Shown here: one piece after another, positions 4,259 through 49,998 of the stretch
How positions within the stretch are numbered: position 1 is the first letter of the stretch
Layout of the letters: every line of letters begins with the position of its first letter
IMG/VR virus record: IMGVR_UViG_3300033121_002154
Coordinates: 28,908 to 92,907 of that record
DNA length: 64,000 nt
Direction: 5' to 3' (one strand)
From: a virus
Lineage: Duplodnaviria; Caudoviricetes
Notes under the pieces: model-generated
What the model was told of the DNA's origin: nothing
Databases searched by the model: none
The model's input: only the letters and a program-made list of their open reading frames with translations
Position numbers and translations under genes: made by a program

Positions 4259-4528
4259 ATGAATGGAGCACAATTTAGAAGTTTAATAGTTAATAGAAGA
4301 CCAGATATGGATTTTGATTTTGTAGATACAAATTTAATAGATTCAATGCATGAAATGACTTGGGATATTGATGATAAAGTTAAAAAAGAAAAAATTCAAA
4401 ATGAATTATATGAAATTCAAAAGCAACTTTCAAATAAACTTGAAAAAGTAAATTTTATTTATCAGTCTTTTATAAAAGCATTAATTACTGAATATAAACA
4501 AAAGGGTGAAAAAGCTTTAAAACAATGA
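4259..4528 (+). CDS. small helical protein, paralog of 3972-4238
   Basis: Same pattern as 3972-4238. Confidence 0.75.
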   Translation: MNGAQFRSLIVNRRPDMDFDFVDTNLIDSMHEMTWDIDDKVKKEKIQNELYEIQKQLSNKLEKVNFIYQSFIKALITEYKQKGEKALKQ

Positions 4529-5985
4529 AAAAATTGAAAAAACTTCTTGATATAATTAATGAAAATAATGCAAAAAATGCTTATAATTTAATAAAAAATA
4601 TTATTAAAAATACTAAGTGGGATAATAGAATTTTTGCAGCAGGCGGATATGTTAGAGATGAACTTTTAAAAAATACATCAAAAGATTTAGATATTGTTGT
4701 AAATGCAGATAATGGCGGAATTGAATTTGCAGAATGGTTAGCAAAAAAACTTAAAATATATAAGGCAAATTCAAATCCAGTAGTCTTCAAAAATTTTGGA
4801 ACAGCTAAATTATCACTTAAAGGTATAAAATATAATGGTTATGATTTATCAGATTTTGAAGTAGAATTTGTTATGCCAAGAGGAGAAAAATATACGATTG
4901 GTTCAAGAAAACCAGAAGTTTATAAGAGTGATTTAAAACAAGATGCTTTACGAAGAGATTTAACTGTAAATTCTCTTTTTAAAAATTTGACAAATGATGA
5001 AATATTAGATTTAACAGGAAAAGGAATAACTGATTTAAAATTCGGTATAGCAAGAACTCCATTAAATAATCCCGATGAGACATTCAAAGACGACCCACTT
5101 AGGATGCTTAGGTTAATAAGATTTTCTTGTAAATACGGCTGGAAATTACCAAGATTTATGTTATTGGCTTTAAAGAAAAATGCACAAATGATTCAGCATA
5201 TTAGTAAAGAAAGAGTTAGAGATGAATTTGATAAAATTTTAATTTCACCCAATCCAGATAAAGGAATTAGATTGATTCAGTGGACGGGATTAAGTAAATG
5301 GATATTACCAGAATGGGATTCGTTAGTAGGATTAACTCAAAATAAATATCATAATCAAACTGTTGATAGACATATTTTAAGTGTTGTAAAAAATGTTCCA
5401 AGTCATTTAATAGCAAGATTAATTGCTGCATTTCATGATATTGGAAAAGCAGACACAAAAAGTGTTATTGATGGAGAAGTTCATTTTTATTTACATGAAG
5501 ACATTGGTGCTGATATTGCAGAAAAAATTATGAAAAGATTAAAATATCCTATTGATATAATTAATGCAGTCAAATTAGGAATTAAAAATCATATGAGATT
5601 AAAAGGCTCAGGAAATGAAGGTGAGATAATTTCTGATAAAGCTTTAAGAAAATTAAAATTTGAATTGGGAGAACATCTTGAAAATATTCTTGATGTCATG
5701 CATGCTGATAATATTTCTCATTCAGATGAACATAGTATGCCAAATCAGATTCCGGGTATAAGAAAAAGATTATCATCATTAAGTGATATACCAAAAAATC
5801 AGCATATTAAATTACCAGTGTCTGGAAATGATTTAATTATTATTTTTGGAGTAAGACCTGGGCCAATTATGAAAGAAATTTTGAAAGCAGTTGAAGATGA
5901 ATTCTTTAACAATCCAGATATGACAAGAGAAGAAGCATTACAAATAGTAAAAAATTTCATAGATGAATATAAATTTAAAAAATGA
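4525..5985 (+). CDS. cca: class II tRNA nucleotidyltransferase (CCA-adding enzyme) with HD domain
   Basis: GGYVRD..DLD, RRDLTVN, DDPLRMLR, SKERVRDE and HDIGK motifs; N-term MKKLKKLLDIINE. Confidence 0.92.
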   Translation: MKKLKKLLDIINENNAKNAYNLIKNIIKNTKWDNRIFAAGGYVRDELLKNTSKDLDIVVNADNGGIEFAEWLAKKLKIYKANSNPVVFKNFGTAKLSLKGIKYNGYDLSDFEVEFVMPRGEKYTIGSRKPEVYKSDLKQDALRRDLTVNSLFKNLTNDEILDLTGKGITDLKFGIARTPLNNPDETFKDDPLRMLRLIRFSCKYGWKLPRFMLLALKKNAQMIQHISKERVRDEFDKILISPNPDKGIRLIQWTGLSKWILPEWDSLVGLTQNKYHNQTVDRHILSVVKNVPSHLIARLIAAFHDIGKADTKSVIDGEVHFYLHEDIGADIAEKIMKRLKYPIDIINAVKLGIKNHMRLKGSGNEGEIISDKALRKLKFELGEHLENILDVMHADNISHSDEHSMPNQIPGIRKRLSSLSDIPKNQHIKLPVSGNDLIIIFGVRPGPIMKEILKAVEDEFFNNPDMTREEALQIVKNFIDEYKFKK

Positions 5986-28737: not shown

Positions 28738-29031
28738 TTAATTTAGTAATCCACGTTCTTTAGAAAGTTTCATATATCTTTCAACTTTTTCCATTTTTAG
28801 TCTAATTTTCTCAGGATCTATAAGATCATCAATTTCTTTAAAAACTCCTTCAATTTTTAATAATTTTATAGTTGCTACTACATCATTATATTCATCTATG
28901 AGTCTTTTGTAATTCGGTTCATTATCTTTATATTTTTCATCATTACCAAAACAAATCATTTTAGTTGCTCGTTTTGTTAATTCTGAACATTCTTCTGCTA
29001 GTTTAACCAGCAGGTATTGTTGTTTTGTCAT
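28738..29031 (-). CDS. MazG-like nucleotide pyrophosphohydrolase
   Basis: LAEECSEL....K...FG...L.DE..D. Confidence 0.7.
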   Translation of the reverse strand: MTKQQYLLVKLAEECSELTKRATKMICFGNDEKYKDNEPNYKRLIDEYNDVVATIKLLKIEGVFKEIDDLIDPEKIRLKMEKVERYMKLSKERGLLN

Positions 29032-44653: not shown

Positions 44654-44662
44654 AAACAATTG

Positions 44663-44735
44663 TAGTTGGTAGAGGAATCGAACCTCTATTCATCGGATAT
44701 AAGCCGATTTCTTTGCACCATTAAGATAACCAACC
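44663..44735 (-). tRNA. tRNA-Ile(TAT), no encoded CCA
   Basis: GGTTGGT/ACCAACT; ATCGG-CT-TAT-AT-CCGAT; T-loop TTCGATT. Confidence 0.88.
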
Positions 44736-44742
44736 AAAAATA

Positions 44743-44903
44743 GTCCCCGAAAGAGGAATCGAACCTCTACAAAAATAAATTTTCAATTTAATTAGATTAT
44801 ATAAATATCATCACTATCTATACAAAATTTAAATTTTATTCTGTTCTCACAAACCCGTGATGAAAGTTTCAGTGATAGCATCGCCAATTGTGCAGTTCGA
44901 GGA
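44743..44903 (-). ncRNA. 161-nt tRNA-like RNA with expanded anticodon and variable regions
   Basis: Acceptor TCCTCGAA/TTCGGGGA; D-like GCA..TGG..TGC; ATCACT/AGTGAT stem around about 55 nt; T-arm AGAGG-TTCGATT-CCTCT. Confidence 0.65.
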
Positions 44904-45315
44904 ATTTTATGTAAATATAATTTCTTCTTCTAATGCAAGTGCATCGGAACAACCATTTTTAAATTGAATAATTTGATCTAAAAAATATTCATCAATTGAT
45001 TTATTTTTCATATAAATTGCTTCATCTAATATCTTTCTTATTTTCTGAATTTCGGTTATAGAAAAACTTCCCTCAGAATCAGAATGATTTAAAAGTGGGA
45101 AAATATCTAAATTTTTAAGTTCATTTATAGATTTTTTTCTATACGATTTTCTATGTTCCAAAACTGCATCAGTATCATATTCAATATATTCATTTAAATT
45201 TATATTAAAAAGTTTAGCAAGTTTTATCCTAAATTCATTAAAACTGCCACAACTTCCATCATAACAATTATGTGATACTGTAACACCCATGATTTTTAAT
45301 TTTTAGGTTAATAAA

Positions 45316-45393
45316 TGGTGGACTTTCCCAGAGTCGAACTGGATTCTTATGTGCTTCAAACATACGCTGAATAACCCTACTAGCTCAAAGTCC
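45316..45393 (-). tRNA. tRNA-Phe(GAA), CCA encoded
   Basis: GGACTTT/AAAGTCC-A-CCA; TATGT-TT-GAA-GC-ACATA. Confidence 0.85.
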
Positions 45394-46051
45394 TTATTAA
45401 TTCTTGTTTTGTATAATTTTTAATTTCATTAAATAATTTTTTTTCAATTATGAAAATTTTATTTTTTAACCAAATATTTTGTTCTAAAACTAATCTCATT
45501 TTTTCTTTATCATCTCCCCACCAAAACCCTTTTATTTCAATAAATTTATCAAATATTGGTAAATAAAAATCTGGCGTATATCTTTTTTCTTTTTCATCTT
45601 TTTTATAAATAATTGGTTTACATCTTTCCCATTTTATATCAAATTCATTTAATTTTAGAGCAAAATCCCTCTCCCAGCTTCCCTGAACTTTTTTACCATT
45701 TACTTCATACCATTTACTTTTTCCGCCAGGATTATTTTGACTCATTTCTAATGAATGAAATTTTCTTTTTTCTTCAGTCCAAATAGCCCATCCATTTTTT
45801 TTATAAATACCTTCCTTTACTTGTTTTTTTAATTTATTTGAAAGATTTTTTGAGCTCTTTAAAATTCTTTCATCTATATTTTTATTCAAATTTTTATTCC
45901 AAGGAACCCGACCCTTAGGTGCACCTCCAAACTTTCTACCAAGATGCACTTTTAATATATGAGTTGAAATACCCTTATAAGAATATTTCTTTATACAATG
46001 TGGACATTGATAATTTCCATCAGAACATTTCCATTTATTTAAAATTTTCAT
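45380..46051 (-). CDS. putative homing endonuclease (C2H2 finger, NUMOD-like segment, PD-(D/E)XK domain)
   Basis: CPHC...H....H; PWNK; S.WE...YTPDFYLP....IEIKG; stop codon lies inside tRNA-Phe. Confidence 0.8.
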   Translation of the reverse strand: MKILNKWKCSDGNYQCPHCIKKYSYKGISTHILKVHLGRKFGGAPKGRVPWNKNLNKNIDERILKSSKNLSNKLKKQVKEGIYKKNGWAIWTEEKRKFHSLEMSQNNPGGKSKWYEVNGKKVQGSWERDFALKLNEFDIKWERCKPIIYKKDEKEKRYTPDFYLPIFDKFIEIKGFWWGDDKEKMRLVLEQNIWLKNKIFIIEKKLFNEIKNYTKQELIRTLS

Positions 46052-46759: not shown

Positions 46760-47191
46760 ATAATATACTTTTTATTTTAACTTTGATTACCTATACATAT
46801 AAATTATCCATATAATAAAAATAAATCAGAATTAAAAAATTCTTTAAATTTTATATCTGGGTCAAAAATTTCTTTTAATTTTTTTTATTAAATTCAATTA
46901 AAAATTCTTTATTGCTTTTAAAAAAATATTTCATAAATTAATATTATCTTTTATAAAATTCAATATATAAATTCGGATATTTATATTAACAATTAGTTAT
47001 AACTCCAATATTTATTATACCTGAATTTTCTTTTCTATTTTATTTACTAATTATTGTAAATATTCAATTATCAAAAAGTTATCATCTTAATCATTAATTT
47101 CTATTGAAGATAAATCATCTTTTTGCAATGGTATTCCCCATCTTAAAAGAGTTTTTAGTTCCACTATTAATAATACCATAATTTATTTTTT

Positions 47192-47365
47192 TTAATTAAA
47201 ATAATCTTTATATAATTCATTTATAGTTGGGCCCATACAAAAATTTTTTGAATTAGGGTTAAAATAAGCATCAAAAAATTCTTTTATTGTAATATTGTTA
47301 TATTTAATTTTAGTTTCAGCTTTAATTAAGATTAAATCTTTATTAAGTTTAAAAAAATATTTCAT
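47192..47365 (-). CDS. 57-aa MKYFFKLNKDLI microprotein
   Basis: ATG-to-TAA ORF just after tRNA-Leu(CAA); 5' about 40 bp identical to 47563-47736. Confidence 0.55.
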   Translation of the reverse strand: MKYFFKLNKDLILIKAETKIKYNNITIKEFFDAYFNPNSKNFCMGPTINELYKDYFN

Positions 47366-47379
47366 AAATTAAAAATATG

Positions 47380-47562: not shown

Positions 47563-47736
47563 TTATACTTTCCATTGAGGATAACTTTCATCATCAAATT
47601 TATATTGTCTATAATTTGCATCTATAATTGATGAAATATCTGATGTAAGTTTTACCTCAAGAAATTGTATGGGTACAACTTTATTTTCAAATTTTAATTT
47701 AATTAAATCTTTATTAAGTTTAAAAAAATATTTCAT
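47563..47736 (-). CDS. 57-aa MKYFFKLNKDLI microprotein
   Basis: ORF just after tRNA-Pro; shared 5' repeat. Confidence 0.55.
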   Translation of the reverse strand: MKYFFKLNKDLIKLKFENKVVPIQFLEVKLTSDISSIIDANYRQYKFDDESYPQWKV

Positions 47737-47751
47737 AAATTTATTTAGTAG

Positions 47752-47826: not shown

Positions 47827-47849
47827 AAAATTTTATTAATATTACTTTG

Positions 47850-47930
47850 TTGCGGGAGGAGGAATCGAACCTCCGACTCCTTTCAGAAGGGGGTTATGAG
47901 CCCCCCGAACTACCACTATTCAATCCCGCA
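47850..47930 (-). tRNA. tRNA-Met(CAT), initiator-like, with long variable arm
   Basis: TGCGGGA/TCCCGCA; GGGGG-CT-CAT-AA-CCCCC; extra arm TTCT-GAA-AGGA. Confidence 0.85.
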
Positions 47931-48121: not shown

Positions 48122-49936
48122 TTAATTCAGTAAAGAAATTAAAGAATCTTTTGAAAGAACTTTTAAATCAATATCTGGAGATTCATCAGTAAAAGTAAAT
48201 CCTGAATCTTTTAATAATTTATTTAATGATAAATAACATTCACTTGTATCTGCAGCATATTCAGTATATAAATCTGTTATTGACATTCTACTTATTCTGC
48301 CAGAACCTGTTCTAAAATTTGTTAATATAAATTTATTATTTACTAAAACTCCAAATGTTTTTTCTTGTGAATCCATTTCTAAATCAATTGAAAATAAAAT
48401 ATTATTTGGATCTACCATATAGTTGGGTTCCAGATTTGTTATTTTTTCTGTTGCAAAAAATAATTTTAATTTACTTCCAATCTCACCATTAAAAAGATTT
48501 GCTTTTATTAAACCCTTCATTTCAAATCCTTTTGTAGCATATATTAATTCTGTTGCCTCTGGATTTGCATTAGTCATATCACCCGAATAAATTATTGAAT
48601 TAGAATCATTATAATAACTTGAATTCCAACCAATTTTATAACCTGAAATATCATTAAGACTTAAATCAATATCTCTAGCACCATCAACATTTCTCCAATT
48701 TATACCTATTATGGCATCTTTATTTGATAAATCGAAACTTGTTCCAAGAGGAAAATTGCCTATAAATGATTTTTCACTTGTCGGTAAAGCCAAATTTACA
48801 TTTTTTGGTAAACTAATTGTACATGCTTTTTTCTTTAAAGATTCAACTAAACTTTCATATATTAAATAAAAACATCCCAATAATTCACCTGCACTTATCT
48901 TTGATTTTTTTTTTATTTCATTTTGTTTCATAAATAACTTTTGGTTTCTAATCACATAAGCATTCATATCAAGATTTAACAACCTGATATTAATAGTTTG
49001 CAATAATAATATTTTTTTGAAGTTAGAAATTTTTTCCAATTTTTCTAAAGTTAAATCATTCAAAAATTGTTTATTGCTTAATAAATTTTCAAAATATCCT
49101 ATTTTCATGGGTTCGTGAAACTTTTTCGCTAATTTTCTTAGTTTATTAATTATACTTGCATTTTTTTTATTTTTGAAACTTAAAAAAATTGGTTTAAATC
49201 TAAGAAATACTGATGCCAATTTTTCAATTCCGAAATCTTTTACATATTTTTCAAATGCAACATCATGAACGTTATCTTGAATTAATTGTAATGTTTGTTT
49301 GTCTTTTATTAATAGAGATTTTCCAGTTACAGAATATACTAAAAATCTTACCATTTCAACTGGATCTTTCGGCATAATATTTGTTGTTTTGCAAATAAAC
49401 ATTTTTGCCTCTCTATTTTTAACACTTTCAACATCTACAACATAATCAAAATAATTAAATATAGATAATATATTTTCAATGGTTTCTTGTTTTAGAGCAA
49501 TACCACTAAATAACATATTTTCACATTTTTCCAAAACTTCTTCTTTACTAATTATATTTATAACTTGAAATTTAGTAAATTCTATATTTTCAATTTTAGA
49601 AAGATTATGTGCATCATCTATTACTTTTGGAATATATGGTTCACCCTGAAAATCTGTGCCATATGTAGAAGCATAATGCTTCAACTGATCTATAAATAAT
49701 TCGAATCTTGATTTTTTAATAATTGAATTCCAGCTTTTATAAAAAGTTGAATTGTAGTCAAATGTTTTTGTTTTAATAAAATTTATCACTTCATCTGAAC
49801 AAGCATCGGGATGTATTAAATATCCCTTGGGTACTGTAATTTTATTCACATACTCAAAAGACAATTTTTTATCATCATCTACTTTCAAAGAGTTATTAAA
49901 TAACTCAATTACTAAATTGTTTATATTATTTTTCAT
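48122..49936 (-). CDS. large helical protein with C-terminal TerD-like domain
   Basis: GINW....RDIDLS...IGWN..Y......YSGD.TNA...ATE; start taken at ATG 49936. Confidence 0.6.
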   Translation of the reverse strand: MKNNINNLVIELFNNSLKVDDDKKLSFEYVNKITVPKGYLIHPDACSDEVINFIKTKTFDYNSTFYKSWNSIIKKSRFELFIDQLKHYASTYGTDFQGEPYIPKVIDDAHNLSKIENIEFTKFQVINIISKEEVLEKCENMLFSGIALKQETIENILSIFNYFDYVVDVESVKNREAKMFICKTTNIMPKDPVEMVRFLVYSVTGKSLLIKDKQTLQLIQDNVHDVAFEKYVKDFGIEKLASVFLRFKPIFLSFKNKKNASIINKLRKLAKKFHEPMKIGYFENLLSNKQFLNDLTLEKLEKISNFKKILLLQTINIRLLNLDMNAYVIRNQKLFMKQNEIKKKSKISAGELLGCFYLIYESLVESLKKKACTISLPKNVNLALPTSEKSFIGNFPLGTSFDLSNKDAIIGINWRNVDGARDIDLSLNDISGYKIGWNSSYYNDSNSIIYSGDMTNANPEATELIYATKGFEMKGLIKANLFNGEIGSKLKLFFATEKITNLEPNYMVDPNNILFSIDLEMDSQEKTFGVLVNNKFILTNFRTGSGRISRMSITDLYTEYAADTSECYLSLNKLLKDSGFTFTDESPDIDLKVLSKDSLISLLN

Positions 49937-49951
49937 AATTTTTTTAAAATC

Positions 49952-49998
49952 GGCGGATAGTACTTTAGTCAAATGAATTTTTAGGAACTATCTTTGCC
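49952..49998 (-). ncRNA. hairpin element in the 5' leader of the TerD-like gene
   Basis: GGC-AAAG-AUAG-UUCCUA...UA-CUAU-CC-GCC. Confidence 0.55.

Follow-up and report, generated by a model that had tools for sequence, protein, structure and literature searches.

A tRNA-shaped RNA gene of unusual length among the tRNA genes of a large, AT-rich uncultivated phage

Stable RNAs with the shape of a transfer RNA (tRNA) have been recognised in the tRNA clusters of phages T4 and T5 since the 1970s and have neither an assigned function nor an Rfam family. A locus of comparable appearance occurs in the 64,000-nucleotide (nt) stretch of Caudoviricetes DNA analyzed here, referred to below as the window (positions 28,908 to 92,907 of the IMG/VR virus record IMGVR_UViG_3300033121_002154). 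Within its tRNA cluster lies a 161-nt minus-strand element that begins and ends like a tRNA and holds a greatly enlarged centre. An initial annotation, made from the letters of the window, had described it as a giant tRNA-like gene and offered two explanations, a new tRNA-mimic RNA, for which it suggested a role as nuclease decoy or ribosome binder, or a tRNA with a small protein-spliced intron. The locus raises the question of whether the element is a decaying tRNA, an interrupted one, or an RNA that wears the tRNA shape for a purpose other than decoding. We consider it moderately probable that it encodes a stable RNA of about 160 nt that is shaped like a tRNA but does not decode. Such an RNA would rely on the top half of a tRNA for RNase P cleavage, 3′-end maturation and CCA addition, and would present a rod-like module to a partner.

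Results

A tRNA frame that exceeds chance

Positions in the RNA are numbered from the 5′ end of the element (p = 44904 − coordinate; minus strand, 44903 to 44743), and all features are listed in Table 1. The two acceptor strands, UCCUCGAA and UUCGGGGA, form 7 base pairs (bp) that join C2–A8 with U153–G159, and U1 additionally faces A160. The initial annotation had counted these as an 8-bp acceptor stem; the pairing is present, but U1:A160 is better read as U(−1) facing the discriminator A73 than as an eighth acceptor pair. C9 and U10 sit between the acceptor strand and a D-like hairpin, and both this D-like arm and the perfect T arm were found as annotated. The D-like hairpin has a low ViennaRNA probability, which is usual for D arms. 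The T arm is identical to that of the adjacent tRNA-Ile, and 109 nt (RNA 27–135), mostly A or U, separate it from the D-like arm. The folding ensemble is dominated by the distal acceptor (P ~0.99) and the T arm (P ~0.98).

This frame exceeds chance, because an acceptor partner together with a D arm at the right spacing arose with P = 0.00065 in shuffles of the 400 nt upstream (P = 0.015 for a 7-mer partner of the 3′ acceptor strand) and because long frames of the same descriptor numbered 0 in ~2 Mb of reversed or complement-only control sequence.

An enlarged interior without a canonical anticodon arm

The standard tools passed over the element. ARAGORN made no call in either its default or its intron (-i) mode, and Rfam returned no match at gathering thresholds; at E ≤ 10, the Rfam tRNA model RF00005 matched only in part, with 15.9 bits at 44751-44802 against a gathering score of 29 bits. 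Of the features of a canonical tRNA, the element has the 7-bp acceptor and a T arm with a UUCRANY loop; it has neither a 5-bp anticodon stem with a 7-nt loop nor a variable region of 4–21 nt, and candidate anticodon arms have probabilities of ~0.

The initial annotation had placed an anticodon stem, ATCACT/AGTGAT, around about 55 nt of interior and had named two sub-hairpins and a variable region of about 40 nt. The sequences are all there: AUCACU (RNA 28–33) and AGUGAU (RNA 89–94) enclose 55 nt, UCAC-GGGUUU-GUGA and AAAAUUUAAAUUUU are both present, and AGUGAU is separated from the T stem by 41 nt. As a helix, however, AUCACU/AGUGAU has an ensemble pair probability near 0. Folding of the single sequence and of two sequences together favoured a different interior, predicted as a 7-bp hairpin (RNA 41–59) and a 76-nt AU-rich imperfect rod (RNA 60–135) rather than an extended anticodon stem. 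The rod ends directly at the T stem, which is the position of a variable arm. AUCAC in the linker that precedes the hairpin (RNA 28–32) is complementary to GUGAU at the rod tip (RNA 90–94), and both are invariant in the relative described below; the two segments may form a tertiary contact.

One relative with the same layout

Sequencing runs of two studies contained a variant about 93% identical to the element over its whole length; the alignments, of DNA contigs only, showed no joints, and none of the runs listed for the stretch was an RNA run. The sequence of a relative was obtained through the sole homolog (P0002, 86% identical) of the 127-amino-acid (aa) open reading frame (ORF) upstream of the element, on Logan contigs L118–L122 from five samples. 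The relative’s element is about 92% identical and, with 162 nt (L118:3475-3636), shows the full oversized layout, and the two phages have the gene order Phe, ORF127, element, Ile, Val in common. The oversized layout is thus older than the split of the two phages. According to the initial annotation, relatives that show a normal tRNA with recent random insertions would have spoken against its reading; the sole relative shares the enlarged form instead.

Wider searches yielded no other homolog. In IMG/VR and the JGI metagenomes, exact sequence patterns of the T arm with the acceptor, of the centre, of the 5′ region and of the tRNA-Ile uncovered none, and the 127-aa and 527-aa ORFs, used as protein anchors, had no IMG/VR relatives. 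BLAST of the element recovered no homolog in the closest large relatives and only AT-rich fragments (E ≥ 0.04) among 50,697 GenBank phages, while the best hits of the covariance model R1 in 29 related phage records (E = 0.3–0.7) were to a normal tRNA and to a non-tRNA stretch. A 20-mer match in two Woesearchaeota metagenome-assembled genomes was discarded; it lies within a coding gene, has no tRNA context, and about one such match is expected by chance.

Between the window and the relative, the element has changed at 13 of 161 positions, as opposed to ~22 expected under neutrality, given a neutral divergence of ~14% at third codon positions and in an intergenic spacer. The consensus fold places 10 of the 13 substitutions in paired columns, where they break no pair, and two pairs are compensatory (5:156, C-G>U-A; 68:126, A-U>G-C). 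In the acceptor 5′ strand, all three changes preserve pairing (4, U.G>C-G; C5>U, with G156>A; 8, A-U>G.U). The relative further differs in hairpin A (48, G.U>A-U; U51>C in the loop), in the rod, where changes at 63 (G.U>A-U) and 128 (A-U>G.U) accompany the compensatory pair 68:126, and in the T arm, where A138>G turns A-U into G.U; the D-like stem is unchanged, with C21>A in its loop. The consensus fold had been fitted to the same two sequences, and we therefore ran control trials in which alifold was refitted to randomly mutated copies. At least 10 preserved changes were reached in 10 of 400 trials and at least two compensatory pairs in 28 of 400. The comparative signal for the consensus fold is suggestive, not decisive. 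The stronger argument is a qualitative one, that GC-rich stems are perfectly paired in both lineages at 24% GC and that total change lies well under the neutral expectation. The tRNA frame of the element is real and maintained.

The 3′ end of the element can also be read in another way. On the minus strand at 44744-44757, the 3′ T-stem strand and the acceptor strand (UCCUC UUUC GGGGA), followed by CUAUUUUU, score as a terminator-like hairpin. In the relative, G156>A weakens this hairpin while C5>U restores acceptor pairing, which favours the acceptor stem as the selected structure.

Drift or maintenance

Several observations weigh against a maintained, non-decoding RNA. The tRNA-like ends change at close to the neutral rate (13% over RNA 1–68 and 11% over RNA 126–161), compared with 2.7% in the flanking tRNAs. 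The 57-nt centre (RNA 69–125) is invariant (0%), but we rejected it as proof of selection, as longer identical runs occur in nearby coding DNA. When structures were fixed beforehand, the probability of seeing no broken pair was 0.08 for the model of the initial annotation and 0.28 for the tRNA core alone. The homolog covariation that the annotation had proposed as a check did bring out the two compensatory pairs without a broken one, but there is a single relative, at ~92% identity, so the covariation is weak. The rod, lastly, is almost all A-U, and alternative folds are cheap.

Part of this pattern would also be expected of a young pseudogene, that is, an ordinary tRNA gene that lost its function to one or two AT-rich insertions not long before the two phages split and has drifted ever since. 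The divergence of the element as a whole, 8.1%, equals that of the surrounding DNA, its ends approach the neutral rate as just described, its interior resembles AT-rich spacer, and no tRNA model accepts it. The cluster, moreover, is undergoing change through a mobile endonuclease gene, found in the window and not in the relative, and the one close relative is the only source of a homolog. Drift nevertheless fits poorly with stems that contain 0 mismatches in either lineage and with the substitutions in the tRNA-like and rod-base helices, six of six of which keep pairing, two pairs by compensation. It also leaves the shortfall of changes against the neutral expectation and the persistence of GC-rich stems in a 24% GC genome to be explained. 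No relative carrying an uninterrupted tRNA at the site of the element was found, and similar oversized frames are kept in other phages, as two paralogs in the case of one contig, G001. We consider decay of this kind unlikely.

No single excision restores a convincing tRNA

Interrupted tRNAs were examined by a deletion scan in which every 30–109-nt segment was removed and ARAGORN rerun. The scan ‘restored’ three mutually exclusive tRNAs, with the anticodons CUA (75 nt cut behind the 5′ acceptor strand), GAA (84 nt cut behind the D arm) and UAU, so that no single excision is compelling. Phe(GAA) and two-insert models were rejected: in the relative, U126>C disrupts a GAA arm at RNA 112–130, and a GAA loop at RNA 32–38 requires a 37-nt variable region. 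A group I-interrupted tRNA was discarded as well, with no Intron_gpI match on the element at E ≤ 10 and an insert of at most ~85 nt as against the ~200 nt or more needed. The small protein-spliced intron suggested by the initial annotation found no support. At the anticodon loop, ARAGORN -i finds no such intron, although the same tool models inserts of this type in two genes of other contigs (L016 and L026, see below); no single deletion is convincing; the putative exons change faster than the putative intron; and EndA (PF01974), RtcB (PF01139) and Rnl2 (PF09414) were not found in the 92.9-kilobase (kb) record, which represents ~44% of a complete genome.

A further interrupted tRNA can be drawn from the 3′ 85 nt, which resemble a class-II tRNA body. 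If ~75 nt following the distal 5′ acceptor strand, or following the first D arm, were removed or looped out, a TAG-reading amber-suppressor tRNA(CUA) would result, with a D arm GAUA/UAUU, an anticodon arm AUAUA-AUCUAAU-UAAAU, a 17-nt variable arm and the shared T arm. ARAGORN calls this 85-nt segment of the window tRNA(cta) at a lowered threshold only (-ps90) and labels the corresponding 86 nt of the relative (L118:3551-3636) ‘tRNA-Pyl(cta)’ by default; once the 75 nt behind the 5′ acceptor strand are deleted, ARAGORN draws a clean cloverleaf. The CUA arm lies within the invariant RNA 69–125. G001, the closest large relative, has a normal 72-nt tRNA(CUA), and in its two long tRNA-like genes the AAUCUAA heptamer recurs, about as far from the T arm as in the element. 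Precedent for such a tRNA is provided by the ‘enigmatic’ tRNA introns of Lak megaphages (PMC6784885).

The proposed D and anticodon stems, however, consist of A-U pairs only, include one A.A mismatch and, like the CUA arm as a whole, have an ensemble probability near 0. With the proximal acceptor (four U.G, one U.U), the 85-nt tRNA(CUA) reaches only −1 kcal/mol. The bona fide tRNAs of this phage, by contrast, all have GC-rich stems (38–56% GC). The insert would fall at position 7/8 or 26/27, outside the anticodon loop, where ARAGORN -i finds nothing, and neither a group I signal nor one of the splicing and ligation proteins searched for above is at hand in the incomplete record. Here too, the would-be exons evolve faster than the would-be intron, and the two G001 paralogs do not agree in the strand supposed to form the 3′ side of the anticodon stem. 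TAG recoding left no sign in this phage, whose genome is read well with the standard code and whose ORF lengths and coverage are barely altered by treating TAG as a sense codon, or in the G001 pieces. In sum, an interrupted suppressor appears quite improbable to us. We give very little credence to its extension to the over-long frames of related large phages, according to which these and the element would be intervening-sequence tRNAs of a bacterial virus, a 75-nt insert outside the anticodon loop being removed or structurally bypassed by a mechanism other than group I self-splicing and the archaeal EndA pathway, with a regulated amber-suppressor tRNA(CUA) in a standard-code phage as the product.

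The tRNA-like acceptor and T arm around a large internal domain recall a reduced transfer-messenger RNA (tmRNA) or a Y RNA, in which a tRNA-like domain would be combined with a part devoted to ribosome rescue or to binding a partner of the Ro60 type. tmRNAs occur in some huge phages, and Ro/TROVE proteins with tRNA-like partners in some jumbo phages (PMC7824862). Yet ARAGORN -m finds nothing on the element, Rfam lists neither a tmRNA nor a YrlA (RF02553) match on it at E ≤ 10, the acceptor has U3.G70 in place of the alanine determinant G3:U70, and no plausible tag frame is present. There is no TROVE gene in the record, and the Ro-binding stem of a Y RNA is formed by its termini, which in the element form the acceptor stem. 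Such a molecule is extremely unlikely here.

Other roles were tried and rejected. A consensus scan for a promoter inside the element gave fewer promoter-like sites than shuffles, and the TATAAT at RNA 103–108 is unremarkable at 24% GC. The interior is single-copy in the window and BLAST shows no second copy in the record, which speaks against a repeat or mobile mini-element. A coding role was dismissed in view of the small ORFs, which are only TTG or GTG frames of 21–36 aa.

Resemblance to phage stable RNAs

T5 RNA1 (144 nt) and RNA2 (125 nt) are annotated as ‘tRNA-like stable RNA with unknown functions’ (GenBank AY543070.1). Like the element, they lie inside a tRNA cluster on the tRNA strand, abut tRNAs and are of similar size. 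They also fold similarly, with the acceptor, the D arm and a T arm of the GGUUCGAAUCC type making up a tRNA frame and a much enlarged arm at the place of the anticodon arm, and the T5 cluster is peppered with homing-endonuclease genes. T5 belongs to an unrelated phage lineage, and the likeness rests on layout and fold. Unlike the T5 RNAs, the element has a large, almost pure A-U rod beside the T arm, in the variable-arm position; the T5 RNAs are known stable transcripts, whereas a stable transcript of the element is a prediction.

In T4, the species 1 and 2 RNAs (rnaC, 139 nt; rnaD, 119 nt) are small stable RNAs beside tRNA-Arg and the homing endonuclease segB (AF158101.6), non-tRNA members of a tRNA cluster without an Rfam family. 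In rnaC, as in the element, the T arm is canonical (CCGGGUUCGAAUCCCGG), the termini pair in the manner of an acceptor and the interior forms long hairpins; rnaC differs from the element in its imperfect acceptor, the lack of a clear D arm, its shorter length and its far higher GC content. On T4, model R1 matched neither rnaC nor rnaD and hit only tRNA-Arg, weakly, at 12.7 bits.

Taken together, the element most likely belongs with these phage tRNA-like stable RNAs, by analogy of layout and fold, as a kind rather than as a homologous family: it lies in a tRNA cluster, on the same strand and with tRNA-like spacing, and, at a length near the 120–160 nt of this kind, its acceptor and T arm frame an enlarged centre that is not an anticodon arm. 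Of the two explanations in the initial annotation, the tRNA mimic is therefore the better supported, but it would not be a new kind of RNA in view of T4 rnaC/rnaD and T5 RNA1/RNA2.

Two further groups of tRNAs show partial likeness. The tRNA genes of Lak megaphages contain highly conserved introns that have been called ‘enigmatic’ (Devoto et al. 2019, PMC6784885). Like the element, these are over-long tRNA genes in very large phages of ~26% GC, with inserts too short for group I introns, nearly invariant between genomes and with no known splicing route (PMC6784885). The Lak inserts, however, reside in otherwise recognisable tRNAs with assignable anticodons, while in the element no single excision leaves an acceptable anticodon arm; Lak phages are also TAG-recoded, unlike the phage of the window. 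Class-II tRNAs (Leu/Ser/Tyr) and natural amber suppressors have in common with the element the 7-bp acceptor, A73, the D-loop GG, the T loop UUCGAUU and an extra arm that leaves immediately 5′ of the T stem, and the element can be drawn with a 7-nt loop that contains a CUA triplet, as in amber-suppressor tRNAs. Their extra arms measure 13–21 nt, compared with 76 nt in the element, which lacks a stable 5-bp anticodon stem and has C8 in place of the near-universal U8 of canonical tRNAs.

Over-long frames were also encountered elsewhere. The 501-kb contig G001 holds two paralogous ones (L126:5975-6128, 154 nt; L009:347-481, 135 nt), uncalled by default ARAGORN. They have the acceptor GGAGAAA/UUUCUCC, a T arm and a canonical D arm in common, AAAAUCUAAGCA is present in both, and an 18-nt indel at the tip of an inner hairpin sets them apart. 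At L016:13637-13768 and L026:9541-9653, tRNA genes contain anticodon-loop inserts of 48 nt and 42 nt, respectively; ARAGORN -i assigns them to Ser(GCU) and Pro(AGG), the latter with an Rfam tRNA score of 54.5 bits over 114 nt. These two resemble the Lak-phage ‘enigmatic introns’.

Genome context

The window is part of a 92.9-kb IMG/VR record with an estimated completeness of ~44% and 24% GC, whose genes include those for a major head protein, thymidylate synthase, a CCA-adding tRNA nucleotidyltransferase and other phage functions. Ten tRNAs, identified with ARAGORN and Rfam, are clustered on the minus strand at 44.5–51.5 kb, the strand of the element, and the 8-nt spacer between the element and tRNA-Ile has the same length as that between the Ile and Val genes. 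An encoded CCA is missing from the element and from most tRNAs of this phage; the phage’s CCA-adding enzyme could finish the 3′ ends of both.

Table 1 Coordinates of the element, its parts and selected genes of the window
Feature	Coordinates	Strand	Remarks
Whole tRNA-shaped RNA gene	44743..44903	-	161 nt; 162 nt in the relative (L118:3475-3636)
Acceptor 5′ strand CCUCGAA (RNA 2–8)	44896..44902	-	Pair probability 0.7–0.99; U1 at 44903 opposite A160
D-like hairpin GCA / CAAUUGGCGA / UGC (RNA 11–26), G19 G20	44878..44893	-	Read directly from sequence
14-nt linker U AUCACU GAAACUU (RNA 27–40)	44864..44877	-	Unpaired in consensus fold; invariant in the relative
Hairpin A (RNA 41–59)	44845..44863	-	7 bp, one bulge, loop GGUU; predicted with alifold
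AU-rich imperfect rod (RNA 60–135)	44769..44844	-	27 bp in three helices; predicted from minimum free energy fold and alifold of both sequences; pair probabilities 0.44–0.88
Rod apical loop GUGAUGA (RNA 90–96)	44808..44814	-	Predicted from folding ensemble; invariant
T arm AGAGG UUCGAUU CCUCU (RNA 136–152)	44752..44768	-	Perfect; pair probability 0.83–0.98
Acceptor 3′ strand UUCGGGG (RNA 153–159) and discriminator A160	44744..44751	-	No encoded CCA
tRNA-Ile(UAU)	44662..44735	-	Begins 8 nt past the element; ARAGORN and Rfam
Upstream 127-aa ORF	44907..45290	-	Stop codon 3 nt before U1 of the element; anchor that led to the relative
CCA-adding tRNA nucleotidyltransferase	4525..5985	+	HD domain; PHROG 2244 at 1e-53; NCBIfam CCA tRNA nucleotidyltransferase at 1e-62

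Several other features of the cluster were recorded. An endonuclease-like ORF (Phage_endo_I / PHROG 15137) at 45380-46051 (-), between tRNA-His and tRNA-Phe, is missing from the relative (compared at L118:2440-2980), and the relative has an additional tRNA-Leu(CAA) at L118:1675-1758; the difference in the endonuclease ORF looks like recent turnover of a mobile endonuclease in the tRNA cluster. tRNA-Met(CAU) at 47849-47930 (-) measures 82 nt and has a class-II-like extra arm, which is odd for a Met tRNA. An intergenic element of ~55 nt is repeated within the cluster (47686-47743, 46888-46942 and 47321-47370), as it is in the relative, and may be a promoter or processing signal. Finally, a 616-aa ORF at 48122-49972 (-) matched nothing in Pfam, PHROG or NCBIfam. 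It has homologs at 30–55% identity in at least 19 large-phage contigs, in many of them within or beside a tRNA cluster, and may encode a tRNA-related protein of an unnamed family.

Discussion

Among the readings considered, a tRNA mimic is best supported, because the top half of the molecule is intact in two diverged phages, a usable anticodon arm is missing and the gene keeps tandem tRNA spacing. The other over-long tRNA frames held by related large phages also speak for it. We picture its biogenesis as follows. The element would be transcribed together with the neighbouring tRNAs, and its intact top half, with the acceptor stacked on the T arm and the D-loop GG set against the T loop, would be handled by the enzymes that normally mature tRNAs. 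Cleavage by RNase P would fall just ahead of C2, processing of the next tRNA, 8 nt downstream, would release the 3′ end, and CCA would be added, possibly by the phage’s own enzyme.

In the mature RNA, the anticodon and variable region would be replaced by a 109-nt AU-rich module made up of the 14-nt linker, the 7-bp hairpin and the 76-nt rod. The rod would leave the body where the variable arm of a class-II tRNA does, and its tip might fold back to pair with the linker. Lacking a real anticodon arm, such an RNA would not read codons. The tRNA body would most likely be a handle for processing, stability and recognition, and the rod and hairpin the working part. The RNA would then act as a tRNA mimic toward a tRNA-binding factor of the host or the phage, as is presumed for T4 rnaC and T5 RNA1/RNA2.

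Together with four further over-long frames in related large phages, the element indicates that the theme recurs in uncultivated jumbo phages with inserts that are unrelated to each other. This recurrence with unrelated inserts suggests that the tRNA body is a reusable chassis, serving processing, stability or recognition. Annotation pipelines miss such genes or, as ARAGORN does with the relative, mislabel them as suppressor tRNAs, and labels of this type can mislead inferences about stop-codon recoding. The element, delineated from two sequences, provides a well-delimited example with a testable fold.

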